Positions 24,419 through 63,308 of a DNA stretch of 64,000 nucleotides are shown here, in pieces. The notes under the pieces are model-generated. The model had not been told where the DNA came from. It made no database searches and saw only the letters and a program-made list of their open reading frames with translations. Source of the stretch: an uncultured Candidatus Binatia bacterium. GTDB taxonomy: Bacteria > Desulfobacterota > Binatia > UBA9968 > JAJDTQ01. The position numbers and the translations under genes are program-made. Numbering within the stretch: position 1 is the stretch's first letter; each line of letters starts with the position of its first letter. The DNA is taken from the NCBI GenBank assembly GCA_965242525.1, contig OZ251459.1, positions 1,536,001 to 1,600,000 on the forward strand. The letters are read 5' to 3'.

Positions 24419-24546
24419 GATGTAGGTCGCCGCGGGGCCTGCTTCCCGGGAGCGGGGCAGGGAATCTCGACGGAAAATTTCTGCGGGGTGTGACTTTCCC
24501 GAAGAATTGGGGTAAACAGTAGGGTAGCGCTCAAGGAGCTGGACAC

Positions 24547-24646
24547 CTTATCCAGAGTGGTGGAGGGACAGGCCCGTCGAAGCCACAGCAACCGCGTTCC
24601 CCAGGGGACGCAGGTGCTAATTCCGGCCCGCAAGGGACAGATAAGG
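24547..24646 (+). ncRNA. SAM-I (S-box) riboswitch
   Basis: CTTATCCAGAG..GGAGGGACAGGCCC..GAAGCC..AGCAACC..GGTGCTAATTCC..AGATAAG. Confidence 0.92.
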
Positions 24647-24656
24647 TGAGGAGAGG

Positions 24657-39356: not shown

Positions 39357-41827
39357 AGACCTGCGCGCTGGCCCTGTGCCTGGCGCTCCTGCTCCCGGCT
39401 TCCGCCTGGGCGCGGGGGGCCGGGGGCGCCATGGAGCGGCTGCGGGACCCCCTGTCCGGCTTCGACCCCTTCGAGCAGCCAGTGACGGCCGAAAGGTACT
39501 TTCCCGACGAGACCGAGAAGCGCGTGCGCCGGGTCCTCATCGACGCCCTCACCCGCCGCACCGAAGGGTTCCGCGAACACGTCCGCTATTTCGAGGAGCA
39601 GGAGGAGAACGCGGACGGCGGACTCGCCCACCTCGTGAGGGACCTCCACGACGGCAACCTCACGGACCGGGAAGCTTACCGGGACGCGCAACGAAGGGCG
39701 CTGGCCGAAGCCCCCTCCGACGTGCGGCAACGGGCGGTCCGCGCCCGGCTGCGCCGGGACGAGCTGGAAAGGGCCGACTCGCTGATGGCCGAGAGCCGGG
39801 TCGGGCGCTGGAACGCGCTCCTGAACCGCTTGCTGGGGCCGGTGGACCTGGTGAAGCTCGCGTCGGGATCCTACGTCACCGCGGCGGTGGATACCGCCTT
39901 CGCGGAGTTGCGGCGGGCCCGGGCGCCGCACATGCCCGCGGCCAAGCGCAAGGCCCTGGTGCTCTACAAACGCTTCCTGGAGCGTTTCCCGGACGACCCC
40001 CGGCGCGCGGAAGTGGAGCGGAAGATCGCCGACCTGGAAGCGGACCGGAAGGGCGCCTGGGTCCACGGCCGCCTGGCCCGTGCGGGCGAGGCGCTGGAGC
40101 GCGGGAAGGTCGGGGAGGCGGAGTTCCATGCCTACCTGGCCGCGGTGGCGGACCCGGAGGCCGAAGACGTGGAGCAGCGGTTCGAGGAGATCGACGCGGC
40201 CCGGGAGGCCCGGGACCAAGCCCGGCGCCGGAACCTTTCCGTGGCCGACGCCGACAGCTTGGCCGACGCCACCCCCGAGCAAAAGAGGGACCTGCGGGGG
40301 TTGCTGTACGCCCTGGCCAGGGGGGACGCCGCAGGGGCCGGGGAGCGGGCCCGGGACATGGGACGCCGCTACGCCCACGAGACCCTGGGGACCCTGGCCA
40401 AGGACGCCGAGGCCGTGGCCCTGGATCTCCGCGGACGCCGCGAAGCGGCCAAGGAGGTCCTGAACGAGATCGCCAACGCCGCCCCGTCCCCGAGACTGCG
40501 GCAACGGGCCCGGACGCTGCTGGACAGCCCGGAATACAACCTGCTGGGAGCGCTGGACCGGGCCCGCACCGGCTACCACCTGAAGCAGTTGCGGTTCGTG
40601 CTGCTGGGGGAGGACTTCCTCGAGAAGAACGCCATGGTCGGCGCGGCGCCGGTGATCACCCACGGCGTGGCCGGGGCCGCCACCCTGGGCGCGGCGAACG
40701 TCCTGATGGTGAGCGCCAACGTGCTGGAGATGCTCAGCGGGAACCCGGTGTCCAACCAGGCCGTCATCGACGCCGCGGCCCGGTACGTCCGCGTCCGGCC
40801 GGACTCCGGGAAGTCCGGCGACGTTTACCGGGTGCTGGGCGAGGCCTACGAGAGCAGAGGCCACCTGCACAAGGCGCTGTACTACTACAGGCTCTCCGGC
40901 AAGGTTCCGTCCGAAGAGACCCGGGCGCTGGAGGAGAGGGCCGGGCGAGCCCTGCTGGACGCGGCCGAAGGGACCGGCTCCCGGGAGCGGCAGCGGACCC
41001 TGTACCGGGCGCTCCTGGAGCATTACCCCGACACCGCGGCGGGCGAGCAGGCCAAGGGCCTGCTCGCCCGGCTGGTCTCCGCCAAGGGCCGCGGCTTCCG
41101 GTTGAGCAAACGCTTCCTCACCGACCACCCGCGCCTGCATGGACCGCAGGGGCTCGGCCTCAAGGCCGCCCTCTTCGACGGCAGCCTCGACAACCTGGAA
41201 TTGGCCGACACCGGCCTCAACGTCCTCGGACGCCACACGGTGATGCTGCACTACGACACCCCGTGGGGGCCGCAAAGCCGCGCCTATCCCATCGCCCGGA
41301 CCCGGGTGGAGGGGCTGGAAGCGCTGTTGCGCGAACGGCACTACGAGCGCGCGGCCATGGACGTGGACGAAAGGGACGAGGACAGCGTCGGCGGGTTCCC
41401 CGAATTCCCGGCCCGGTTGATGCGGCCGGAAGCCGCGGAGCGCGGCCGGGACGCCGCGGACCGGGAGTTCATACGCCGGACCGGGCGCGCCGCGGAGCCG
41501 CGCCCGCGCATACTCGACTACCAACTGCTGAGCGAGAAGGAATCGGACCCCCAGCGAGCCTACGGCCTGCCCACGCTCCAAGGCGGCGTGACCGCGTCCG
41601 GAGGGGTCAACGTGCGCGCAGACGCGCCCGGGTCCTTCCTGGCCGACGAACTGGTGATGGGCAACGACGCCGCCAGCCCCTACGCGGGCGCCCGGCTGCC
41701 GATACCCTTCCTCAAGGGTTTCGTCCCGGTGGACTTCATGGTCCGCGTGCGCCCCGGACTGCCGTCCGTCACGCCCCAGATCCGCAAACCGAAGACCACC
41801 GTGGACGATCCCCACCTATACGAGTGA
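39353..41827 (+). CDS. Large exported TPR-like hypothetical protein
   Basis: Signal peptide MKTCALALCLALLLPASAWA; TPR-like motifs (YKRFLERFPDDP, LGEAYESRGHLHKALYYY, LLEHYPDT); ATGA overlap with previous gene. Confidence 0.7.
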   Translation: MKTCALALCLALLLPASAWARGAGGAMERLRDPLSGFDPFEQPVTAERYFPDETEKRVRRVLIDALTRRTEGFREHVRYFEEQEENADGGLAHLVRDLHDGNLTDREAYRDAQRRALAEAPSDVRQRAVRARLRRDELERADSLMAESRVGRWNALLNRLLGPVDLVKLASGSYVTAAVDTAFAELRRARAPHMPAAKRKALVLYKRFLERFPDDPRRAEVERKIADLEADRKGAWVHGRLARAGEALERGKVGEAEFHAYLAAVADPEAEDVEQRFEEIDAAREARDQARRRNLSVADADSLADATPEQKRDLRGLLYALARGDAAGAGERARDMGRRYAHETLGTLAKDAEAVALDLRGRREAAKEVLNEIANAAPSPRLRQRARTLLDSPEYNLLGALDRARTGYHLKQLRFVLLGEDFLEKNAMVGAAPVITHGVAGAATLGAANVLMVSANVLEMLSGNPVSNQAVIDAAARYVRVRPDSGKSGDVYRVLGEAYESRGHLHKALYYYRLSGKVPSEETRALEERAGRALLDAAEGTGSRERQRTLYRALLEHYPDTAAGEQAKGLLARLVSAKGRGFRLSKRFLTDHPRLHGPQGLGLKAALFDGSLDNLELADTGLNVLGRHTVMLHYDTPWGPQSRAYPIARTRVEGLEALLRERHYERAAMDVDERDEDSVGGFPEFPARLMRPEAAERGRDAADREFIRRTGRAAEPRPRILDYQLLSEKESDPQRAYGLPTLQGGVTASGGVNVRADAPGSFLADELVMGNDAASPYAGARLPIPFLKGFVPVDFMVRVRPGLPSVTPQIRKPKTTVDDPHLYE

Positions 41828-41871: not shown

Positions 41872-42852
41872 TCAATTGCGTTCCCGGCTCCCTCGACGTT
41901 TCCCGGTCCATTCGAGCGCCAGCCGTTCCGCCTCCGCGACCTCCTCCGAGGTCATTTTCTCCTGCAGCGCCTTGCGCGTCTTGGTCCACTCCGCTTCTCC
42001 CTCGCCCGAGTTCAGGACAGCCAGATGAGCCCACATGTGCGCAAGCACGAGGTCCCGGCCGACGCCGTGGCCCGTGAGGTACCGGATGCCCAGGTGGGCC
42101 TGCGCCCCGGGCAACCCCCGCTCGGCCGCCAGACGGCACCAGCGCACGGCTTCCACCTGGTCCTGCGGAACCCCGTGGCCCCGGGAATACATCACTGCAA
42201 GGTTGTACACCGCGCCCACGTGTCCCTGTCCGTCCGCCGCAGCCAGGCGGTACCAATGCACCGCCTTCTCGTAGTCCCGGGCCACCCCCTGCCCCTTTTC
42301 GTGCATGACGCCCATGTTGTATTGCGCACGGCGCTCCCCCTGTTCCGCGGCCAAGCGGAGCCAACGCAACGCCTCCACGTAGTCCTGGTCCACCCCGTGC
42401 CCCAGGTAATACATGGCGCCGAGTTGCGACTGGGCCAGGGAAAAACCCTGCTCCGCGGCCAAGCGGAACCAGCGCACCGCCTCCAGGTGGTCTTTGGGAA
42501 CCCCCCGTCCCTGCCCATACGCGACCCCGGTATCGTATTGCGCCGGCGGGAACCCCTGTTCGGCGGCAGCGCGATACCAGCGCACCGCCGCAACGTCGTC
42601 TTCAGACACTCCGTGACCCATGTCATGGATGACGCCAAGGACGTGCTGCGCTTCGGCGTTGCCCTGTTCCGCCGCGGCTCGGCACCCGACGACCCTCTCG
42701 GCCCAATCCCTGTCCTTGTCGAGACACGTCTCGACGGAGGCCCGCTGCGTCGGCGTCTCGGCCAGGGCGCGCGCGAACCCAACCCCCAACGCAACCCAGA
42801 CCAGGCTCGACGCGAGAAGCACGGAAACCGTTGCTCGAATCTGTTCAGTCAT
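41872..42852 (-). CDS. Exported Sel1-like repeat protein
   Basis: Start MTEQIR with signal-like N-terminus; about six AAEQG..AQY.LG.MY..G.GV..D..EAVRW repeats. Confidence 0.9.
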   Translation of the reverse strand: MTEQIRATVSVLLASSLVWVALGVGFARALAETPTQRASVETCLDKDRDWAERVVGCRAAAEQGNAEAQHVLGVIHDMGHGVSEDDVAAVRWYRAAAEQGFPPAQYDTGVAYGQGRGVPKDHLEAVRWFRLAAEQGFSLAQSQLGAMYYLGHGVDQDYVEALRWLRLAAEQGERRAQYNMGVMHEKGQGVARDYEKAVHWYRLAAADGQGHVGAVYNLAVMYSRGHGVPQDQVEAVRWCRLAAERGLPGAQAHLGIRYLTGHGVGRDLVLAHMWAHLAVLNSGEGEAEWTKTRKALQEKMTSEEVAEAERLALEWTGKRRGSRERN

Positions 42853-42931: not shown

Positions 42932-43504
42932 CTAGTCGAGGCTCGTGTTATAGAAAAGATCACGGGTGCTGTTCGGCTGCTCCTGGTCGCTGTCGGACGA
43001 CCCGAAGAAGTAGTCGAAGACCGCACGCGCGGCGTTGGCAACCGCCTCTTGACACTCAGGATCCGTGATAAGCGAGTGTACGAGACTGATGCCCCCCGCG
43101 ATGTCGATGGGTGAACCCATCTCCCCCATCCCCCGCGTTCCGGTGACGAAGAAACTCTCGTCCCCGTTGGGGTCATAGAGCTCTCCGGTCGCAGCGGCAA
43201 TGGGATCGAACCCCATCGAGGACATTGCCGCAGACGCCCCACATGCCCCGGTCGGCACGGGCGCGGGTCCGGACGAGGATTCGGACGACGCTTCCGCAAC
43301 CCCTTCGTCCGCGTCCGCTGCGCAACTGCAATCGCACTCGCAACCGCAGCCACAACCGCACCCGCAGCCACAACCGCAGTCACAGCCGCATCCGCAACCA
43401 CACCCGCACCCGTGGGTCTCCAGGTCGAGGTCTTCGTCACGGGCATCGAGCAGCCATGTGGTCGTCACGGCGCCTGCCTGGGCGGAACCTTCCATCGTTT
43501 GCAT
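42932..43504 (-). CDS. Cys-X repeat protein with 15 alternating Cys (RiPP precursor- or metallothionein-like)
   Basis: RBS GGAAGGAG 8 nt before ATG at 43504; acidic leader, then (CG)4CD(CG)6CECDCSC encoded with mixed synonymous codons. Confidence 0.65.
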   Translation of the reverse strand: MQTMEGSAQAGAVTTTWLLDARDEDLDLETHGCGCGCGCGCDCGCGCGCGCGCGCECDCSCAADADEGVAEASSESSSGPAPVPTGACGASAAMSSMGFDPIAAATGELYDPNGDESFFVTGTRGMGEMGSPIDIAGGISLVHSLITDPECQEAVANAARAVFDYFFGSSDSDQEQPNSTRDLFYNTSLD

Positions 43505-43625
43505 GCCATGTTCTCCTTCCGTGTTGTGTTTATCGCCCACACAGAAGCAGATCGACCCGTCGGCATGGAACTTTAGGAAACCCCGGACAATTCCGGCTCG
43601 AACTCCGTCTCCCTATGGAAAGCGC

Positions 43626-43746
43626 ATCCTTCGACTTCGCTTCGCTACGCTCAGGATGAACGGAGGACTTCGCTGTACTCGGGACGAACGGGGAACTTCA
43701 CTGCGCCATGCTTCCTTCGACTTCGCTATGCTCAGGAGGAACGGGG
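43626..43746. repeat. REP-like family A tandem cluster
   Basis: CCTTCGACTTCGCTTCGCTACGCTCAGGATGAACGG plus two degenerate copies. Confidence 0.8.
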
Positions 43747-43879
43747 TGGCTGTCCGGGGTTTCCTTTGTCCGAAGCGGGGAAGTCCTGGCAATGGCGGAT
43801 GAGATTCTCTATGCTTGGCGCACGTCCGAGAGGACGTCGTTCCGATCCATGGCAACGTAGTCGATCCCCGGAGGACAAC

Positions 43880-53555: not shown

Positions 53556-56500
53556 TTGCGCAAGGTAACGTGAAGGAAGAAGTACGCGCCGCGCTGTCCG
53601 GGCTGGAGGGCAGAGAACTCGCAACCGCGGCAGAGGGTCTGCTGGGCGCACTGGGCTACCATAGCGAGCGTACCCCACGTCAGTCCGGCCGCGTGGACGA
53701 CTTCATTTCACGACTACCCGCGCCGAAGCGCGGCACGAGCTCGGAGCAAGAGTTCCGCAAGGAAGCCACCGCCGTCCACGTCGTCTTCCAATTCACGGAC
53801 ACGGAAATCGCGGCCTCCGCACAGGCCAGCCTGCTGGACGACGCCCCGTCGTTCGACGAGGGCAACGCCAAGAGCTTCTTGTTCACAGCCGTGGATCTGC
53901 AAGGCAAGAGCTACCCGCGCGGGAAGTATGCAGCTTTCACACGGGAGGTCAACAAACGCATCAGCGCGCCGGTGGTCGTCCTGTTCCGTAACGGGACAGG
54001 CAAGGTCACGCTGGCGTTCGCGCATCGACGGCAGAATCGGCGTAACCCGGAGCGGGACGTGTTAGGCAACGTCTTGCTCATCCGAGAGATGGACGCTGCG
54101 GATCCGCACCGCGCCCATCTGGACATCCTCGCCGAGCTATCGCTCCCCCAACGGCTGAAGTGGATGGCGTCCCATGACAAGCAGCGCAACTTCGACGGAC
54201 TGCTTACAGCATGGCTGGACGCCCTGGACACGGAGGAGCTCAACCGCCGCTTCTACCGCGAGTTGTTCGGGTGGTTCGAGCGGGCGGTGGAACAGGCGCG
54301 CTTCCCGCAGGGCGAGGCAAAGTCCATCTCCCGAGAGGAACACGTCATACGCCTCATCACACGGCTGCTGTTCGTGTGGTTCATCAAGGAGAAAGGCTTG
54401 GTAGCGGAGGATTTGTTCGTCGAGGAGAGGGTGGAGAAACTGCTGAAGGACTACGACCGCGACGCTGGCGATTCCTACTACCGGGCCGTGCTGCAGAACC
54501 TGTTCTTCGCCACGCTGAACACGGAGATCGGGCGGCGGCGCTTCAGCGGCAAAGGCAACCCCACCCACCGTGACTTCTCGCTCTACCGCTACAGGGAGGA
54601 AATAGCGGACGAGAAAGGGCTACTGGAATTGTTCGGGCGAACGCCGTTCATCAACGGCGGGCTGTTCGACTGCCTGGATAGCGAGGCGGCCACGGGGCAT
54701 GGCGGCTACCGCATCGACTGCTTCTCGGACGTGCACTATCACAGGCTGAGCATCCCCAACCGGCTGTTCTTCGGCGAGGACGGCCTCATCGACCTGTTCG
54801 AGCGCTACAAGTTCACCGTGGAGGAGAACACGCCTGCGGAACAGGAAGTTGCGCTGGACCCGGAGCTTCTGGGCAAGGTGTTCGAGAATCTGCTGGCGGC
54901 GAACACGCCGGAGACCTCGGAGAAGGTGCGGAAGCAGACAGGTTCCTACTACACGCCCCGTGCGGTGGTGGAGTACATGGTGGACGAGGCACTGGTTGGC
55001 GCGCTCGCCCGGAAAGCGCCTCCGCCGGACGGAGACGAGGACTTCTACCAAGAGCGTCTCCGCTATCTGCTCGACTACGAGGACGCCTTCAGCGATGCGG
55101 ATACGCTGTTCACGCCGGAGGAACGCGAAGGCGTCGTGTGCGCCATCGCTGAGCTTCGAGTTCTGGACCCGGCGGTGGGTTCCGGCGCATTTCCCATGGG
55201 CATCCTGCACAAGCTAACCTTGGCCTTGCGCCGCCTGGATTCGGACAACCACTTGTGGGAGAAGCTTCAGAGAGAGAAGGCGGAAGTGCGCGCGAAGGAT
55301 GCCTTCCGGACCAAGGATCAGAAGGCGCGAAGGGAAGAACTTACGGGGATAAGCGATACATTCGAGCGGTACCGCGATTCGGACTTCGGGCGGAAGCTAT
55401 ACCTCATCCAGAACAGCATCTACGGCGTGGACATCCAACCCATTGCCTGCCAGATAGCCAAGCTGCGCTTCTTCATCTCGCTGGCCATTGAACAGCGGCC
55501 TAACGAGGACGATGAGGACAACTACGGCATCAAGCCACTGCCTAACTTGGAGACTCGGTTCGTGGCGGCGAATACCCTGTTGGGGCTGGACACTGGCACC
55601 CAGATGACCCTGGGACAGACCGGCGAGGTACCGCGGCTTCAGAGGGAATTGCGGGCCAATCGGGAACGTCACTTCCACGCCACGACGCGGAGACGAAAAC
55701 TGGACTGCCGCCGACGGGACGCCAACCTGCGCCGACGATTGGCGGACGCGCTACGCGGAGCGGGCTTCTCTGCCGAGTCCGCGGAGCAGCTAGCGGCGTG
55801 GGACGCCTTCGACCAGAATGCGACAGAAGCGAAGTGGTTCGACGCGGAATACATGTTCGGGGTGTCGGACGGATTCGAGGTGGTGATCACAAATCCTCCC
55901 TATGTGCAACTTCAGAAGGACGGCGGCCGTCTAGCGCAGCTATACAAAGACGCGGACTTCGAGACGTTCGCGCGGACAGGAGACATATACCAGTTGTTCT
56001 ACGAGAAAGGGATGAACCTGTCTACCGAGGGGAGTGGATTACTGGCATACGTGACGTCCAACAGTTGGCTGAAGGCGGAGTACGGCAGATCGACACGGCG
56101 ATGGTTCACGGAGAAGCATACGCCGCTGCGCTTATTGGAGATAGGAAAGGATGTATTCGAGAACGCCATCGTCGATGCCAGCATCCTCATCGTACGCAAT
56201 GGCAAGAGCAACGCCACGAGCCTAGGTGTTGACATGGACCGCCTAGCGGACAAGAGCTTTCCACCGGAGGAAAGCTTCTATGGGGACTTCCGGCCCAATG
56301 GCGAGAGACCTTGGATCGCGCTTTCCAGCATAGAACGGACAGTGATGGACAAGATAGAAGCCGCTGGGACGCCCTTGAAAGAATGGGAGGTGAGCATCTA
56401 TCGTGGGGTTACCACGGGGTTGAATAGCGCCTTCATCATCAATGAGGACACAAAGCAAGCACTTCTCAAGGTAGACCCGAAGTCCGCGGAGATCATCAAG

Positions 56501-57130
56501 CCGGTGCTGCGCGGGCGGGACATCCAGCGATACCGGGCAGAGTATGCCGGCCGGTGGCTGATCGATACCCACAATGGGTATGGGGGCGTTCCTGCCGTTG
56601 ACGTTGACGCTTACCCTTCAGTCAAAGCCCACCTGAATGGCTTCTACTCATGTTTGGAAAAGCGGCAAGACAAGGGCAAGACACCCTATAATCTCCGAAA
56701 CTGCACCTACCACGAGGAGTTTGCCAAGGAGAAGTTGGTTTGGCTTGACCTGACCGAGCGAGGAAGATTTGCATATGACACTGACAAAATGTTCTGCGTG
56801 AACACGGCTTTCATCATGTCAGGGGAAGCAATCAAATATCTGTGCGCGGTGCTCAACTCCAAATTGGCAACTTGGTTTATGAGCAACACCGCGCTCAATT
56901 CCGGCATGGGAATATCTCGATGGATTCCCGTATGGATCGAACGAATTCCGGTGCCTCGTATTGACGCAGGTGGTCAGCGTCCGTTCGTGGAACTAGTGGA
57001 TCGGATACTGTCCGCGAAGCAAAAAGATGCCTCTGCGGACACATCGGGGTACGAGCGAGAAATAGACGCATTGGTGTACACGCTGTACGGGCTGATAGGG
57101 GATGAGATGACGGTGGTGGAAGGGGAGTAG
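53552..57130 (+). CDS. Eco57I-like type IIG restriction-modification enzyme / amino-methyltransferase
   Basis: PFINGGLF, LGKVFE, GSYYTP, LDPAVGSGAF, YGVDI, NPPY, C-terminal TaqI-like TRD. Confidence 0.88.
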   Translation: MIAQGNVKEEVRAALSGLEGRELATAAEGLLGALGYHSERTPRQSGRVDDFISRLPAPKRGTSSEQEFRKEATAVHVVFQFTDTEIAASAQASLLDDAPSFDEGNAKSFLFTAVDLQGKSYPRGKYAAFTREVNKRISAPVVVLFRNGTGKVTLAFAHRRQNRRNPERDVLGNVLLIREMDAADPHRAHLDILAELSLPQRLKWMASHDKQRNFDGLLTAWLDALDTEELNRRFYRELFGWFERAVEQARFPQGEAKSISREEHVIRLITRLLFVWFIKEKGLVAEDLFVEERVEKLLKDYDRDAGDSYYRAVLQNLFFATLNTEIGRRRFSGKGNPTHRDFSLYRYREEIADEKGLLELFGRTPFINGGLFDCLDSEAATGHGGYRIDCFSDVHYHRLSIPNRLFFGEDGLIDLFERYKFTVEENTPAEQEVALDPELLGKVFENLLAANTPETSEKVRKQTGSYYTPRAVVEYMVDEALVGALARKAPPPDGDEDFYQERLRYLLDYEDAFSDADTLFTPEEREGVVCAIAELRVLDPAVGSGAFPMGILHKLTLALRRLDSDNHLWEKLQREKAEVRAKDAFRTKDQKARREELTGISDTFERYRDSDFGRKLYLIQNSIYGVDIQPIACQIAKLRFFISLAIEQRPNEDDEDNYGIKPLPNLETRFVAANTLLGLDTGTQMTLGQTGEVPRLQRELRANRERHFHATTRRRKLDCRRRDANLRRRLADALRGAGFSAESAEQLAAWDAFDQNATEAKWFDAEYMFGVSDGFEVVITNPPYVQLQKDGGRLAQLYKDADFETFARTGDIYQLFYEKGMNLSTEGSGLLAYVTSNSWLKAEYGRSTRRWFTEKHTPLRLLEIGKDVFENAIVDASILIVRNGKSNATSLGVDMDRLADKSFPPEESFYGDFRPNGERPWIALSSIERTVMDKIEAAGTPLKEWEVSIYRGVTTGLNSAFIINEDTKQALLKVDPKSAEIIKPVLRGRDIQRYRAEYAGRWLIDTHNGYGGVPAVDVDAYPSVKAHLNGFYSCLEKRQDKGKTPYNLRNCTYHEEFAKEKLVWLDLTERGRFAYDTDKMFCVNTAFIMSGEAIKYLCAVLNSKLATWFMSNTALNSGMGISRWIPVWIERIPVPRIDAGGQRPFVELVDRILSAKQKDASADTSGYEREIDALVYTLYGLIGDEMTVVEGE

Positions 57131-57221
57131 GTGTTGGATGGAAATGCCCATGAAGTCACGCGCCGGTGCGCCCGGTCGCGCTTGCGAAACATACCATCGG
57201 TCATTAGGAGCTGAAACCAGA

Positions 57222-57647
57222 ATGACCGCCCTCCCTCACCCCATCCCCACGAGCGCAACGGCGACGAAGAAAATGCGTGCGAACCGCCGATTAGATACGA
57301 AGCCCGAAATCAGGCTCAGATCCGCACTGCATCGAGCCGGATTGCGATTCAGGAAAGACCAACTTATCCGCCTGCCCAATGGCAAAACAACGCATCCCGA
57401 CGTCGTGTTCCCTCGAAAGAGAGTCGCTGTCTTCGTAGATGGCTGCTTCTGGCATTCATGCCCGCAACACGGCACTACTCCAAAGTCCAACGTGGACTAT
57501 TGGATCCCCAAGCTGAAAGAAAACGTCGAGAGAGACAGAGCCACGGATTCGGAGTTGGAGGCAGGCGGGTGGCAGGTCGTCAGGGTCTGGGCGCACGTGC
57601 ATGAGGACGAAGCAGCGGCTACAATCATATTAAGGTTCTCAGAATAG
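57222..57647 (+). CDS. vsr: Very short patch repair endonuclease
   Basis: M.ANRRLDTKPE..LR..LH..G.RFR, PDVVF, FVDGCFWH.CP, YWIPK..N.ERD. Confidence 0.9.
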   Translation: MTALPHPIPTSATATKKMRANRRLDTKPEIRLRSALHRAGLRFRKDQLIRLPNGKTTHPDVVFPRKRVAVFVDGCFWHSCPQHGTTPKSNVDYWIPKLKENVERDRATDSELEAGGWQVVRVWAHVHEDEAAATIILRFSE

Positions 57648-58707
57648 AAACCATTACAAGTTCGTATAACAAGTAGTGGGAGCATGGAAGAAGCTCCGTA
57701 TCAAAGCAGGCAGTTGTTGCATCCGACGCAGGTGAGACATGGTCATGGCTCGCAAGGTTTCCCGGGATGTGATCCGCTTGCGCCCCAACGCCTGGTTCTT
57801 CAAGTTGTTCCACACCAGTTCGTCCGGGTTGAGTTCCGGCGAGTACGGCGGCAGGTAATGCAACTCGAGCATCCCTTCCTGTTCCTCCACGAAACGCCGC
57901 ACCGACTTGGCCCGATGGACCGGGTGGCCGTCCACAATCAGGAAAATGGGAGAGGTCGCATTCACCATCAGGCGTCTGAGAAACCCGATGAACACCGGCG
58001 CCGTCACTCGCCCCGGAGTCACCATGAAGCGAAGATGCCCACGGGCGCTGATGGCAGAGATGAGGTTCGCCCCGAACCGCGCCCCCGTGCCCGACACCAC
58101 CGGAGTATGCCCCCGAAGCCCCCAGGTCGTGCCCCAATGACTGTCCGAACGAACCCCCGCCTCGTCTCCGAAGAAGATCTGCGCCCCCACACGCTTCGCC
58201 CGGTCATGCAGCTTCGGGTATTCCTCCTCCCGCCAATGACGGGCCGCCTCCGGATCCTGTTGATAGGCACGCCAAACAGGACGCTGCACGCTCAATCCCA
58301 TCTGCCCCAGCAACCGGCACACCGTACTGTGACTCAGCCGCACACCCCATCGCCTGTCGATCAGCTCCTGCACCATCTTCGCCGTCCACAGCGCAAACGG
58401 AAACCGCAACTGCAACGGGTTCTTCTCCACCACCGTGTCATAAACCCATTTCAGCGCCCTCGCATCCAGCTTCGGAGGCCGCCCTCCTCGCTTGCGGGCG
58501 TCCAGCTTCCCCCATCCCCCGCTGCGGTACAACGCCAACCAACGGAACACCGTGCGCAGGTTCACTCCCATGGCCGCCGCCACTTCTGTCGGCTTCGACC
58601 CCGCTTGCAGGCTCGCAATCCCGCGCCGGCGCAATTCCGTCAAGGTCCGATGATCCAGTTTTCGTCCGTCCGTGTTCATACCCGTTATCATACTATACTT
58701 CTGGTTC
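57647..58707 (-). mobile_element. IS630-family insertion sequence flanked by TA
   Basis: TA at 57645-57646 and 58708-58709; imperfect terminal inverted repeats GAAACCA / GAACCA; contains the transposase. Confidence 0.75.
57654..58691 (-). CDS. IS630 family transposase
   Basis: HTH N-terminus, FGDEAG, IVDGHPVH, LPPYSPELNPDE.VW. Confidence 0.93.
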   Translation of the reverse strand: MITGMNTDGRKLDHRTLTELRRRGIASLQAGSKPTEVAAAMGVNLRTVFRWLALYRSGGWGKLDARKRGGRPPKLDARALKWVYDTVVEKNPLQLRFPFALWTAKMVQELIDRRWGVRLSHSTVCRLLGQMGLSVQRPVWRAYQQDPEAARHWREEEYPKLHDRAKRVGAQIFFGDEAGVRSDSHWGTTWGLRGHTPVVSGTGARFGANLISAISARGHLRFMVTPGRVTAPVFIGFLRRLMVNATSPIFLIVDGHPVHRAKSVRRFVEEQEGMLELHYLPPYSPELNPDELVWNNLKNQALGRKRITSRETLRAMTMSHLRRMQQLPALIRSFFHAPTTCYTNL

Positions 58708-58760
58708 TATGGCAACTAAAATCGGACCCTTAATAACTCGATTGGAGTCACTGCAAAGCC

Positions 58761-60779
58761 CTAGCGGAGTTCCGGGCTGATAGCCTTCACGTCTTCTATC
58801 TCAATGCTCTTGATGAGATGATACACTCTACCTGCTTGATCCGCACGATCAACGTAATCTTGGTATGCCTCCATCGCGTTCTGGATGAGTTCGTCGTACA
58901 TTACTACACGCGCATTCCAATCTTCCAGATTAGCACGTGATCTCTGTTCAATGTCAGAAGTATCCCAATCTTGCGGTCGTTTCCCAACAACACACACGAA
59001 CTCGAATGGGTCATTTCCCTTACCATTTGTTTGCAGGACTTTCTGGACAGATTTGAAGTACCGTCGTATCTGTCCCTGTAGCTCCATGCTATCCAGTCTC
59101 CGAGAAGCCTTCTTGAGCTCGATTATCACATGCTTGCCCGCTGTGGTAGTGTAGTGGATATCCACTCGTCTCCTCTGCTGTTCCTTGGGCAGAGATTTGA
59201 AGACCGCACCCAAAGCTGTGTAGATCCGCTTTTCCATATGCTTTGTATGTGTTGCCCGTTCCCATGAGGGGTCCAACAGCCAGAGGTGCTTGAATAGATG
59301 TTCTTGGAACGCTCTTTCTTTAGCATCATCATCGACGAGATTCGTCAGTTTCCGGATAACTTCAAGCCTGTCCCTAGCAATCTGGTAATATGCGCTGGCC
59401 TCAAGATCGTCCAACTGGATGAACACTTCCTCAAGGATGTTCAGATTGTCGGCTGATACCTTGTCGAGGCGATAGAGTAGATTGCGCAATTTAAGACTTT
59501 CGAAGGCAAGGATGCCGCTTACGTATAGTTGACGCTTCTCCGTCAAGTCATCTATAGGCAAACGATTGATTCGACCAAAAAGGTTGTTAGCGACCTTCCT
59601 GTGATCCGAATTGAGTTGTGCTTCCCATTCCTTGATTTGAGGAATCTTCAGTGCATCTTCTCTGCCCTTCCGATTCCGTAAAGTTGTCCATTTGTTCTGG
59701 ATGAAATGCAGTTCATCTTGAAGTTTGGACTTCAAGGCCTGGTACCTGGGGTTTTCCTCAATGATGCACTGTCTGCTGGTTGTAGCGATGTCTTCTTCGT
59801 CGTCCAAATCCAAGAAGTCTGCGTGTATCTCCCCAATGATGTACTTTGTATAGAGTCCCCCTTCGGCAAACTCCTCCAAGATGTCCTCTTGCGCCAGTTT
59901 GCCGCGCACCATCAGGAGTATCCTGTTTATGCTTTCGTTGGTATCAGAATCCTTCAATTGACCAGATACTTCGACTGTGCCAATCCATCCGTCGATTTGG
60001 AAATTGCTTCCATCCGTCGCTGTTACTGCGCCCGATCTGATTTCAGCGTGCTGCAGTTTCTTGGCCGCCGCTTTTGCCTCCTGTCCAGTTTCGCCAAATA
60101 CCCAAATATACTGGAGCTTATCATGGTAGTCCCGGTCTTCGATGAGGATTGGATCGTCATTCAAGGTTATCTCGAAGTTGTGACTCCCTCCGATAACGCT
60201 GAACCTGCGAGCGAGCCTTTTCTTCAAGGCTTCACTGCTCCGATGCAGTCGCCGCTTCATATTGGTGAGAATTATCTTCGTTCCCTTGCTTAGCGTGATC
60301 TCCGCAGCGTCAACCGGGTGGGGATTGTAGTCGCTCTCCTGATTCCCATGGATAGCTTCTTCAATCGCGTCAAGGTTCATCCTGAACCCATGAGATTCAT
60401 TATCTTTCACGCTATGGACTTCGACTGTACGGGCTATCGAGAAGAGGGACAGCTTGCCAATACCCTTCCGTCCCATGACGGACCGGCGGAATCGTGGTGT
60501 CTTGGCGCCATCGGGCGCCTTGCGACGCTCGTAGCCCACGCACAGGTAACGCTGATTGGCGTCATCTACGCTCATGCCATGGCCATCATCTTGGATGATG
60601 ATCTTGCCATCATTCGGGTCTATGTCGATGGAAACATGCTCGGCATCGGCGTCCCACGCATTGGCCACTGCTTCGGAGAGAACCGCAGGAACGTTGCTGT
60701 AGAGACCAATACCTAAGTGGTTCAGGACATTCAGACTCAGCGTCATCTTGTACTTACTGCTTTCGCTAGAGGCCATCAT
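58761..60779 (-). CDS. GHKL (MORC-like) ATPase fused to a C-terminal PD-(D/E)xK nuclease
   Basis: LSEAVANAWDADA, DDGHGM, GRKGIGKLS; C-terminal ERAFQEHL..WLL..RVDI..VIIELKK; low GC. Confidence 0.8.
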   Translation of the reverse strand: MMASSESSKYKMTLSLNVLNHLGIGLYSNVPAVLSEAVANAWDADAEHVSIDIDPNDGKIIIQDDGHGMSVDDANQRYLCVGYERRKAPDGAKTPRFRRSVMGRKGIGKLSLFSIARTVEVHSVKDNESHGFRMNLDAIEEAIHGNQESDYNPHPVDAAEITLSKGTKIILTNMKRRLHRSSEALKKRLARRFSVIGGSHNFEITLNDDPILIEDRDYHDKLQYIWVFGETGQEAKAAAKKLQHAEIRSGAVTATDGSNFQIDGWIGTVEVSGQLKDSDTNESINRILLMVRGKLAQEDILEEFAEGGLYTKYIIGEIHADFLDLDDEEDIATTSRQCIIEENPRYQALKSKLQDELHFIQNKWTTLRNRKGREDALKIPQIKEWEAQLNSDHRKVANNLFGRINRLPIDDLTEKRQLYVSGILAFESLKLRNLLYRLDKVSADNLNILEEVFIQLDDLEASAYYQIARDRLEVIRKLTNLVDDDAKERAFQEHLFKHLWLLDPSWERATHTKHMEKRIYTALGAVFKSLPKEQQRRRVDIHYTTTAGKHVIIELKKASRRLDSMELQGQIRRYFKSVQKVLQTNGKGNDPFEFVCVVGKRPQDWDTSDIEQRSRANLEDWNARVVMYDELIQNAMEAYQDYVDRADQAGRVYHLIKSIEIEDVKAISPELR

Positions 60780-61818
60780 GCTTCTCCAAATGTGTCAGGA
60801 TGGAGCAGCCGATGGCCTCGCCAAGCCTGACCGGAACTGCGTTTCCTATCAATCGCGCGACCTGGGTTATCCCAACGGACTCCTCTTCCGAGACGAACGA
60901 ATAGTCCTTGGGGAACGTCTGCAGGAGAGCGCCCTCGCGCAACGAGATTGCGCGATCCTGGACGGGGTGCCCAAACCTGCCATTGCCAAACCCGATGAAT
61001 TGGGTGGTGATGGTTGGAGCCAAGTCCTCCCATCGCATCCGGCCATAGACGCCCGGATAGGTCTGTCCGGTCTCCCTGGCATGACATTCCGCAACGAGAC
61101 CCTGGCTCCAATCACGCCACGTTCCGCCGGGTTTGGAGTTGCGGATGCGTTCGAGATTCCGGGTCGAGAGAACACTCGACATGTGCAACGGGTCGGACGC
61201 CGACGCTTCACCTGCTCCGATCTCATCCAGGTGTCGGATCGAGTCCCCTACGGTGATGAATTCGCTCCTGGCATGAGTCGGAGGCGTCAACTCGATGTGG
61301 CCGAGCCTCGACGCAAACAGCACGAGACGCCTCCTGGTTTGTGGAACTCCATAGCTGGCGCATCTCGCAACCTGGTAATGGACGTTATACGCCTTGCTTT
61401 CGAGAACACTCAGGAAGTCGCCGAAGACGGTGTGTTTTTCGAGGCGCGGCACGTTTTCCATCGTGACGACTTCAGGGAGCGTCCTTTCGACCACTTCCCC
61501 GAACTTGGAAAGCAGTTGCCACTCTCCCTTCCGTACACGGCCCGTGCTGGCATAAGACGAAAACGGCTGGCATGGCGTGCATCCGGCCAGGACCCGGATG
61601 GAATTCGGGGGGAAGAGAGAGGCTATGAACCCTGGCGATAGATCGGCCAAGTCCTCTTCGTAGAACTTCGCCCCGACGTTCGCCTCGAACGGATGCCGGC
61701 AAGCCGGATCGATGTCGATCCCGGCAACTACGTCCACGCCCGCCTGCTTCATTCCATAGGAAAGCCCGCCCGCGCCGCAGAACAGGTCGATGGCGGTTGG
61801 CGCTGAGGTAGCGGTCAT
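60766..61818 (-). CDS. dcm: DNA (cytosine-5) methyltransferase
   Basis: DLFCGAGG, PCQPFS, MENVP, VPQTRRR, REGALLQTFP, GNAVP. Confidence 0.92.
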   Translation of the reverse strand: MTATSAPTAIDLFCGAGGLSYGMKQAGVDVVAGIDIDPACRHPFEANVGAKFYEEDLADLSPGFIASLFPPNSIRVLAGCTPCQPFSSYASTGRVRKGEWQLLSKFGEVVERTLPEVVTMENVPRLEKHTVFGDFLSVLESKAYNVHYQVARCASYGVPQTRRRLVLFASRLGHIELTPPTHARSEFITVGDSIRHLDEIGAGEASASDPLHMSSVLSTRNLERIRNSKPGGTWRDWSQGLVAECHARETGQTYPGVYGRMRWEDLAPTITTQFIGFGNGRFGHPVQDRAISLREGALLQTFPKDYSFVSEEESVGITQVARLIGNAVPVRLGEAIGCSILTHLEKHDGL

Positions 61819-61934
61819 ACCCCTGTCCCCTCTGTCCGCCAATGACGGAATCGGATCAGGATAGGCAAACGGCACGCTGCCATGTCACCTGCACCCTTTC
61901 GCTTGGAGACGAAAGCCTCACCTGGACATCCTTT

Positions 61935-63308
<1,374 letters not shown>

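Follow-up and report, generated by a model that had tools for sequence, protein, structure and literature searches.

A genus-restricted family of cysteine-glycine repeat proteins in uncultured Candidatus Binatia: probable precursors of an in-trans MNIO with interchangeable C-terminal domains

Multinuclear non-heme iron oxidases (MNIOs) are a large and recently recognised group of peptide-modifying oxidases, whose known cysteine-directed products, the methanobactins and captophorins, are copper ligands with two to seven modified sites. They include the enzymes that make the captophorins (bufferins, oxazolin/HvfA and fontiphorin), in which an MNIO and a partner protein with a DUF2063-type recognition element (RRE) for a peptide that is made on the ribosome and altered after translation (a RiPP) turn cysteines into copper-binding 5-thiooxazoles (PMC12668002; PMC11252979; 10.1101/2025.01.10.632315). 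HvfA receives six modifications of −4 Da each through the action of HvfBC, on cysteines that lie in KCG motifs, and the modified product binds copper (Manley et al., PMC11252979). The 5-thiooxazoles are installed by gene clusters that pair an MNIO with a PME1 partner, and one such enzyme pair, FonBC, favours the Cys-Gly dyad, takes small residues after the cysteine and refuses charged ones (Gadgil et al., PMC12668002). Partners designated ‘PME-type 2’ have been tied to precursors without a signal peptide (Antoine et al., 10.1101/2025.01.10.632315). Here we analyse P0001, a 190-residue protein with a tract of alternating cysteines that is encoded in a stretch of 64,000 nucleotides from an uncultured Candidatus Binatia bacterium (contig OZ251459.1, positions 1,536,001 to 1,600,000; this whole stretch is referred to as the window), together with the protein family to which it belongs.

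We consider it likely that P0001 is an MNIO-type precursor that is modified in trans and exported, and that carries a C-terminal cargo module with a partner in the Sel1-repeat protein encoded next to it. The anatomy of the protein, the purifying selection acting on it, the restricted distribution of its family and the neighbourhoods of the genes are directly established. The gene lies on the minus strand, with the ATG start at 43504-43502 and the TAG stop at 42934-42932, and its parts are as follows, in window coordinates.

43513..43520, minus strand: ribosome-binding site GGAAGGAG, 8 nt before the ATG, from direct reading of the sequence
42932..43504, minus strand: coding sequence of the precursor P0001, 190 aa, stop included; the ortholog in sister genome G023 is 77% identical, with a ratio of non-synonymous to synonymous substitution rates (dN/dS) below 1 in this frame
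43409..43504, minus strand: leader, residues 1-32, MQTMEGSAQAGAVTTTWLLDARDEDLDLETHG, the presumed recognition sequence for the partner protein of the MNIO
43322..43408, minus strand: core, residues 33-61, CGCGCGCGCDCGCGCGCGCGCGCECDCSC, with 15 alternating cysteines, the presumed sites of MNIO modification
43244..43321, minus strand: acidic linker with Ser and Pro, residues 62-87, of a length and sequence that vary among family members
42935..43243, minus strand: type-a C-terminal domain, residues 88-190, about 100 aa, bracketed by the invariant C88 and C151

Much of this had been read from the letters in an earlier note, whose good ribosome-binding site and 15 strictly alternating cysteines stand as described, and whose leader of some 30 residues ending in DEDLDLETHG proves to be exactly 32 residues long. 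The acidic Gly/Ser-rich tail of that note is indeed acidic; it also holds the conserved domain between C88 and C151, and this polymorphic C-terminal module was overlooked there, as was its pairing with the downstream Sel1 gene. In the core, cysteine occupies each second position, mostly in Cys-Gly dyads, and there is no lysine. The protein as a whole is strongly acidic (D+E = 31 vs. K+R = 4) and has no hydrophobic segment, N-terminus included, and no Sec signal. The type-a domain follows the motif GFDP..TGE.YDP..DE..TG.RG.GEM.SP (alignment A2). P0001 matched no Pfam family at E values up to 1 and contains no DUF2282; its single NCBIfam match is noise (12 bits), the ESM Atlas gave no usable match for residues 84-190, and an AlphaFold2 model built from a nine-sequence alignment has a mean predicted local distance difference test (pLDDT) score of 37. 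Nothing in Rfam matched in or near the gene, a promoter scan for it found none, and there is no RNA run among the 12 runs listed for the stretch; five of the runs containing it are labelled sponge metagenome. Runs of at least five alternating cysteines occur three times in the source genome (G000; 4.23 Mb, 98.96% complete; 8.46 million six-frame residues), namely in P0001, in a paralog (run at G000:C1:3804045-3804134) and as a 5-unit CRCRC run, and the alternation in P0001 is far beyond chance.

P0001 is a real gene under purifying selection in its minus-strand frame. In the comparison with the G023 ortholog, dN and dS are 0.042 and 0.321 for the leader (ratio 0.13), 0.099 and 1.047 for the core (ratio 0.09), 0.186 and 0.774 for the linker, and 0.162 and 0.265 for the C-terminal domain (dN/dS 0.61). 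The core is written in mixed codons, TGC and TGT for Cys and all four GGN codons for Gly, from which the earlier note had supposed selection on the protein; codon counts and the dN/dS values against G023 bear this out, in that protein-level selection holds the Cys/Gly alternation while the codons drift. The same drift removes two readings in which P0001 would be no gene at all, namely that the tract is a GC-rich hexanucleotide repeat or that the plus-strand QPHPQP frame is the real and conserved one. What can be said for them is that the GC content at third codon positions of the open reading frame (ORF) is 0.73, below the range of about 0.8-0.95 in the neighbouring genes, and local GC at the gene is likewise low (64% vs. 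about 70%). However, synonymous changes are saturated with the alternation kept, the start and the leader are conserved in more than 20 genomes, and the plus-strand frame is flat in GC by codon position (0.62/0.62/0.63), so that leader conservation and the dN/dS pattern refute these readings and we give them practically no credence.

Within one Candidatus Binatia genus, 23 of 24 sister genomes contain the family defined by this leader and core, with one to five matches each, whereas no match came from 16 genomes that represent nine other genera of the order; together with a paralog in the source genome, these are the relatives for which the earlier note had proposed to look. A 40-residue profile (A1), covering the leader and the first dyads and built from 22 sequences, matches 19 of 20 genomes of the genus and none of 280 genomes from 118 other genera of the class. 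It picks out 31 representatives from 1.84 billion clustered proteins, and four of these are spurious. These four, P0052 and the giant FN3-repeat proteins P0042, P0045 and P0050, were tried as members and rejected, their matches covering leader-profile positions 7-32 or 3-24 only and being judged chance beta-strand-motif likeness. P0042, P0045 and P0050 match positions 7-32 six to eight times each (..TLTW......Y[DE]V[DE]VDG); the likeness to FN3 repeats is probably chance, and it hints at a beta hairpin in the leader. A search with the whole P0001 sequence returned 35 proteins, named solely ‘hypothetical protein’ and belonging to metagenome-assembled genomes (MAGs) labelled Deltaproteobacteria, and the titles of related loci are those of Candidatus Binatia MAGs, with a few labelled Thermodesulfobacteriota, Deltaproteobacteria or Syntrophobacterales. 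The family is rare, and its known members so far all come from a single genus of uncultured bacteria associated with sponges.

No other part of the family is as strongly conserved as leader and core. The distance from the initial Met to the terminal HG of the leader is exactly 32 residues in 21 of the 24 unique members first collected, and 22 sequences show no variation at M1, W17, L19, L28, E29 and G32 or in the first three Cys-Gly units. The pattern after this fixed leader is (Cys-Gly)n(Cys-Ser)n, with 3-17 core cysteines (median 12) across 37 unique members; the residue that follows a core cysteine (n=375) is Gly in 71% of cases, Ser in 21%, Asp in 3% and Ala in 2%, which places a small residue (Gly/Ser/Ala) after 94% of them. 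Some members, of 66-80 aa, consist of leader and core only. The paralog in the source genome (G000:C1:3803853-3804230; L002:1300-1878, minus strand) is a 97-aa ORF in which the leader and 15 Cys-Gly units are intact, two in-frame TGA codons interrupt the type-a domain and there is no Sel1 gene after it; with leader and core kept and the cargo decayed, the leader-plus-core module outlives the cargo module. In a number of loci (L008, L010, L011, L015, L016, L021, L025, L026 and L073) a conserved D-[DNS]-T-G-A-[NH] motif stands directly after the core and ahead of the acidic linker; it could be a processing or hydroxylation site, and P0001 does not have it.

The source genome contains exactly one MNIO/DUF692 gene (C1:381884-382759). 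It belongs to an intact operon (G000:C1:376929-382759), 1.2 Mb from the window, that encodes the MNIO, a 276-aa partner protein, an HlyB-type ATP-binding cassette (ABC) exporter, HlyD and a TauD-family oxygenase (C1:376929-377879). The stretch upstream of the MNIO gene holds only repeats resembling repetitive extragenic palindromic (REP) elements, and neither a precursor nor a small Cys-rich ORF. Five genomes of the genus have a second or third MNIO copy, and in three of them a family member is encoded directly upstream.

L033 (G014), same strand: precursor, 104 nt, then MNIO-partner-ABC-HlyD-TauD
L034 (G019), same strand: precursor, 19 nt, then MNIO-partner-ABC-HlyD-TauD
L035 (G006), same strand: precursor, S9 peptidase, then MNIO-partner-ABC-HlyD-TauD

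Among the 37 unique members, 3 are thus immediately upstream of MNIO-partner operons and 1 is beside an MNIO fragment, a 23-residue piece (L070:7042-7110, G004) that is 91% identical to the MNIO N-terminus, lies about 0.5 kb downstream of the member and is apparently the relic of a lost operon. A paralog of the operon HlyD (about 70% identical) follows within 6 kb of 7 of the 37, and in six of these seven a TauD paralog comes after it, the flank of the seventh (L023) being too short to tell. A homolog of the source-genome MNIO is found in 25 of 27 other genomes of the genus, and of the 27 genus genomes tested for both family and enzyme, 25 have both. The genomes without an MNIO match are G013 (98% complete), which also lacks the family and is the only near-complete genome to do so, and G018 (76% complete), in which the family is present. 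Of 20 sampled genus genomes, 19 have an MNIO with 78% identity or more, whereas the matches listed for the other 280 genomes of the class reach 40% at most; four unpublished genomes, none of them from the genus, are part of these counts (G232, G120, G227 and G203). Hence the same narrow, genus-restricted distribution is seen for the Cys-repeat family and for this subtype of MNIO. An MNIO-type RiPP precursor modified in trans was among the options of the earlier note, and it is supported by the adjacency of precursor and MNIO in three sister genomes, by the orphan operon of the source genome and by the shared distribution, which make it a probable, though not a certain, account of these genes.

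The MNIO of the operon is nearest to those of the captophorin systems. The closest NCBIfam models of the MNIO are BufB (204 bits, cut-off 310) and HvfB (178 bits, cut-off 360), with the ApyH, ChrH and MbnB models far behind (MbnB 41.6 bits, cut-off 325), and its best solved relatives are 3BWW (E 1e-35), TglH (E 4e-18) and MbnB (E 5e-6), the first of which is placed among the MNIOs that co-occur with a PME1 partner (Gadgil et al., PMC12668002). All seven partner proteins examined give sub-threshold matches to DUF2063 at residues 7-90 (E 3e-4 to 5e-3), and such weak N-terminal matches would fit the ‘PME-type 2’ partners. The ABC exporters of the sister genomes are 758-773 aa long and align end-to-end with the HlyB type I secretion model (positions 4-693 of 694). 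Neither the 761-aa nor the 773-aa exporter matched Peptidase_C39 at E values up to 0.01, and the leader ends in His-Gly; double-glycine bacteriocins are recognised by a GG/GA cleavage motif together with a C39 exporter, and this combination is not found here.

Other RiPP chemistries would use YcaO enzymes to form azolines or azoles, radical-SAM (S-adenosylmethionine) enzymes to form thioethers, or would make lanthionines from Cys and Ser. A Gly/Cys/Ser-rich core does recall linear azole peptides such as microcin B17, and the source genome has one SPASM-domain protein (C1:410532). However, none of these enzymes adjoins any of the 37 members, and YcaO gave no match in the 99%-complete source genome, in a search in which control genomes gave matches, so that the azole option raised in the earlier note is disfavoured; of the three enzyme types for which it suggested searching the genome, there is no YcaO, the one SPASM protein and the one MNIO/DUF692. 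LanC (PF05147) had no match in the source genome either, a weak result because the controls were silent too and absence is not shown, and the same holds for pmoA (PF02461). We rate these other chemistries as very improbable.

The C-terminal modules form the second part of the argument. In P0001 the type-a domain is followed, 79 nt after the stop, by a gene on the same strand.

41872..42852, minus strand: Sel1-repeat gene, Pfam Sel1 E 1.1e-60, six repeats

The encoded protein has a hydrophobic signal or anchor segment at residues 5-31 and two invariant cysteines in its mature N-terminus, and no terminator-like site was found between the two genes. All type-a members (6/6) are followed by a same-strand Sel1 gene, and the source genome has two Sel1 places in total, of which the second (C1:3415433-3416176) is not preceded by a family member. 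MerG, the best NCBIfam model of the Sel1 protein (152 bits vs. a cut-off of 350), was rejected as its identity, the match being read as shared Sel1 repeats and not as a mercury function. Type-b domains are Gly/Ala-rich and hydrophobic and lie between two cysteines; in 13 of 15 members with this domain, the next gene encodes a conserved membrane protein that is about 150 aa long, has four hydrophobic segments and belongs to no Pfam family. A leader-plus-core member of 68 aa (L051) has HlyD directly after it and no co-varying neighbour of this kind.

A third domain type (P0013, P0030 and P0022) has the signature TSGTDG.H..S.HYSGDAIDL...H.H and is a probable LAS/M15-type peptidoglycan (cell-wall) hydrolase, judging from sequence and model comparisons. 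It aligns weakly with Hedgehog-N across the metal motif (phmmer E 0.2), and in the ESM Atlas it scores 0.94-0.95 to phage clusters and to one Peptidase_M15_3 cluster. The model of P0013 has a C-terminal pLDDT of 64-88, and in the fold search it found ShhN (Z 6.7, 20% identity) and the L-Ala-D-Glu peptidase endolysin of T5 (Z 5.7, 16% identity). The best Z score (7.2) belongs to a PilO-like fold, and since the Hedgehog and T5 rows are tied with unrelated alpha/beta folds, the assignment stays at probable. The type-a domain evolves fast: against a strain contig (run X9) it has 18 non-synonymous and 4 synonymous codon changes, nearly all in residues 94-146, and that contig has six extra bases in the repeat-linker region, as judged from record coordinates. 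The family thus has the layout of polymorphic toxin/immunity systems, with a conserved N-terminal module, variable C-terminal domains and a co-varying downstream gene. By analogy, the pairs of domain and neighbour look like polymorphic effectors with a cognate immunity or binding protein, and the Sel1 protein is a candidate for the cognate partner, immunity-like or binding, of the type-a domain.

Taken together, a mechanism can be proposed for P0001, in which MNIO chemistry, export and toxicity are inferred. The DUF2063-like partner of the MNIO would bind the 32-aa leader, and the MNIO would oxidise the 15 core cysteines, many of them or all, so as to form heterocycles of the thiooxazole (or oxazolone/thioamide) type, using the carbonyl of the Gly or Ser that precedes each cysteine. 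This would yield a product with a long string of ligands for soft metals (Cu), to which the TauD-family enzyme may add further oxidation, possibly in the Asp-rich linker, and which the HlyB/HlyD type I secretion pair would export, a secreted S9 peptidase presumably processing it in many loci. The one operon, at a distance of 1.2 Mb from the window, would act in trans on both P0001 and its truncated paralog. The type-a domain would be a separate cargo module whose cognate partner would be the periplasmic Sel1 protein, and by analogy with the other domain types, the two would most likely be an effector and its immunity or binding protein.

Several points weigh against this proposal. Its support comes from the comparison of genes, and the genomes of the genus are kin, so that the co-distribution of family and MNIO counts as essentially one evolutionary observation and not many. 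The MNIO is below the curated cut-off of every named MNIO equivalog, so that its reaction is not assignable by homology; the DUF2063 matches of the partners are below the Pfam cut-off of 27.2 bits, and comparison of the partner with solved structures, by single sequence and by profile, gave nothing meaningful. The 604-aa exporter of the source genome (G000:C1:379260-381074; L032:3260-5074, minus strand) is without the N-terminal segment of about 157 aa found in the sister exporters, the part that aligns to where the HlyB model begins, and export could be impaired there or could work differently. The leader of P0001 itself is off the consensus at two positions (Thr16 where Pro is usual, Thr30 where Ile or Val is). 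The known thiooxazole-forming systems have Sec signals and Lys by the Cys, both of which are absent in this family, and three core cysteines of P0001 precede Asp or Glu, charged residues that FonBC refuses. Finally, no maturase adjoins the P0001 gene in the window, as the earlier note had correctly said, and the in-trans link leans on the sister genomes.

The missing adjacent maturase would also suit another explanation, namely that P0001 is an unmodified, gene-encoded protein akin to metallothioneins or phytochelatins, whose CxCxC thiolates would bind Cu, Zn or Cd and whose N-terminus would be only a folding or targeting element. The CxC spacing and the small intervening residues resemble those of eukaryotic copper thioneins, and the habitat, known from sponge metagenomes, is in keeping with this. 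In addition, unmodified HvfA already binds two to three Cu(I) (PMC11252979). However, no metallothionein family of Pfam or NCBIfam matched at E values up to 1, and such a protein would leave unexplained the exact 32-aa leader with its invariant residues, the adjacency to MNIO genes, the pairing with type I secretion and the polymorphic C-terminal domains. A metallothionein mimic, the other option of the earlier note, hence comes out as less supported; chemically it is still feasible, and leader and neighbourhoods are what it fails to account for. We judge it improbable.

In a further explanation, P0001 would be a polymorphic toxin that leaves by type I secretion and whose Cys tract serves only to space its parts, structurally or as a metal clasp, with the MNIO acting elsewhere or on adjacent copies only and P0001 remaining unmodified. 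It would accommodate the variation of the C-terminal domains together with the downstream gene, the probable peptidoglycan hydrolase borne by some members, the two departures of the P0001 leader from consensus and the N-terminally shorter ABC exporter of the source genome. However, it is the leader and the core that are most conserved (dN/dS 0.13 and 0.09), members of leader and core only exist (66-80 aa), the paralog of the source genome retains leader and core with a decayed C-terminal domain, and this genome retains an intact MNIO operon with no adjoining substrate. We put its probability as low as that of the metallothionein-like protein.

The likely reading of P0001 as an MNIO substrate with a cargo module can be carried further, to a speculative and rather doubtful one in which the members are ‘Trojan-horse’ bacteriocins. 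An MNIO-made, copper-binding polyheterocycle would be taken up through the metallophore receptor of competing Binatia and would bring with it exchangeable C-terminal toxins, which would be membrane-active Gly-zippers, peptidoglycan hydrolases or, as in P0001, the type-a domain. The co-varying neighbours, whether Sel1 proteins of the periplasm or membrane proteins, would confer immunity on the producers, and the leader-plus-core-only members would represent a plain metallophore ancestral to the toxins. If true, such bacteriocins would parallel the siderophore-microcins by ribosomal means and would connect MNIOs to type I-secreted polymorphic toxins for the first time.

Other features of the window stand beside these. 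Just upstream of the P0001 gene, at 43575-43765, is a repeat element with perfect 15-nt inverted repeats (AGGAAACCCCGGACA / TGTCCGGGGTTTCCT) that enclose three copies of a 28-nt unit. The core motif of this unit, CGCTCAGGA[CT]GAACGG, occurs 640 times in the genome and also fills the space upstream of the MNIO operon, and the element looks like a member of a REP-like family or of one resembling miniature inverted-repeat transposable elements (MITEs). A large secreted protein with no Pfam family is encoded at 39707-41827 on the plus strand, convergent with the Sel1 gene and syntenic in G023. The window also contains a cobalamin riboswitch (45-216, 94.9 bits) and a SAM (S-box) riboswitch (24545-24647, 83.1 bits), and at 56001-62000 its GC content is 0.53-0.57 compared with about 0.70 elsewhere, such that this part may be acquired DNA.

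The family is of interest for the enzymology of MNIOs. As a substrate, up to 17 contiguous dyads would probe MNIO processivity, a near-continuous chain of thiooxazoles or oxazolones would probe metal behaviour, and the leader would probe how a partner recognises a precursor without a signal peptide. Its host is an uncultured sponge-associated Binatia lineage from which almost no natural products are known, and one maturation operon would serve several dispersed precursors, an arrangement that adjacency-based genome mining misses.

Compared with known systems, the family is closest to the captophorins. In both, the gene of a Cys-rich precursor precedes those of an MNIO and a DUF2063-like partner, and the substrate is protein-sized, with target cysteines before a small residue and many sites per chain, the modification in the present family being predicted; BufB and HvfB are the enzyme models nearest to the MNIO described here, and 3BWW is the nearest solved structure. 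In contrast to the captophorins, which have a Sec signal peptide, Lys beside Cys, DUF2282 and genes for DoxX or sigma factors, the P0001 family has a fixed 32-aa N-terminal leader and none of these other features, and its MNIO is below all equivalog cut-offs, those of BufB and HvfB included. The captophorin sites are spaced 5-mers, whereas here the dyads are contiguous, with up to 17 cysteines. Unlike the captophorins, the family is accompanied by genes for a type I secretion pair (HlyB/HlyD), for an oxygenase of the TauD family and frequently for an S9 peptidase, it has polymorphic C-terminal domains with co-varying genes, and most of its precursors are dispersed from the enzyme.

The methanobactin system (MbnA/MbnBC) likewise has a leader without a signal peptide and cysteines before Gly or Ser that are modified by an MNIO and a partner, giving a secreted copper chelator. 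However, MbnA has about 30 aa and two modified cysteines, compared with 190 aa and 15 core cysteines in P0001, the similarity of the MNIO to MbnB is remote (E 5e-6; 42 bits vs. 325), and no genes of the MbnC, MbnT or MbnN type were seen here. Metallothioneins share the dense CxC pattern, the small intervening residues and a likely soft-metal affinity, but they have no leader, export genes or dedicated oxidase, and P0001 matches no metallothionein family. The siderophore-microcins, such as MccE492, combine an antibacterial protein with a metallophore module, are exported by an ABC transporter and a membrane-fusion protein, and have an immunity gene beside the toxin gene, to which the present family may be likened. 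The metallophore of MccE492 is a non-ribosomal catecholate that is attached post-translationally at the C-terminus, whereas in the present family the Cys tract at the N-terminus of the protein itself would give rise to the presumed metallophore. The type-b domains, and the small membrane protein encoded alongside, resemble the Cdz glycine-zipper bacteriocins of Caulobacter (PMC5380434) and the class II microcins, which are small, hydrophobic, Gly-rich and secreted by the type I route. The Cdz bacteriocins and class II microcins differ in having no Cys-repeat module and no MNIO, and P0001 carries domain type a with a periplasmic Sel1 protein.

No description of a Cys-Gly-repeat MNIO precursor, of a Binatia MNIO or of an MNIO with type I-secreted bacteriocins was found in the literature, and the sources compared here do not report for MNIO systems any contiguous dyads, leader of fixed length, export by type I secretion, oxygenase of the TauD family, dispersal of the precursor genes or interchangeable C-terminal domains with co-varying neighbours. 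A ‘cluster #I’ of signal-peptide-less precursors with 7-21 Cys, described by Antoine et al. (10.1101/2025.01.10.632315), may overlap with the P0001 family. From its genes, the family appears to work like the captophorin and methanobactin group but misses several of the features that define each named family, and its type I secretion and interchangeable domains suggest a new way to join a ribosomal metallophore with protein effectors.

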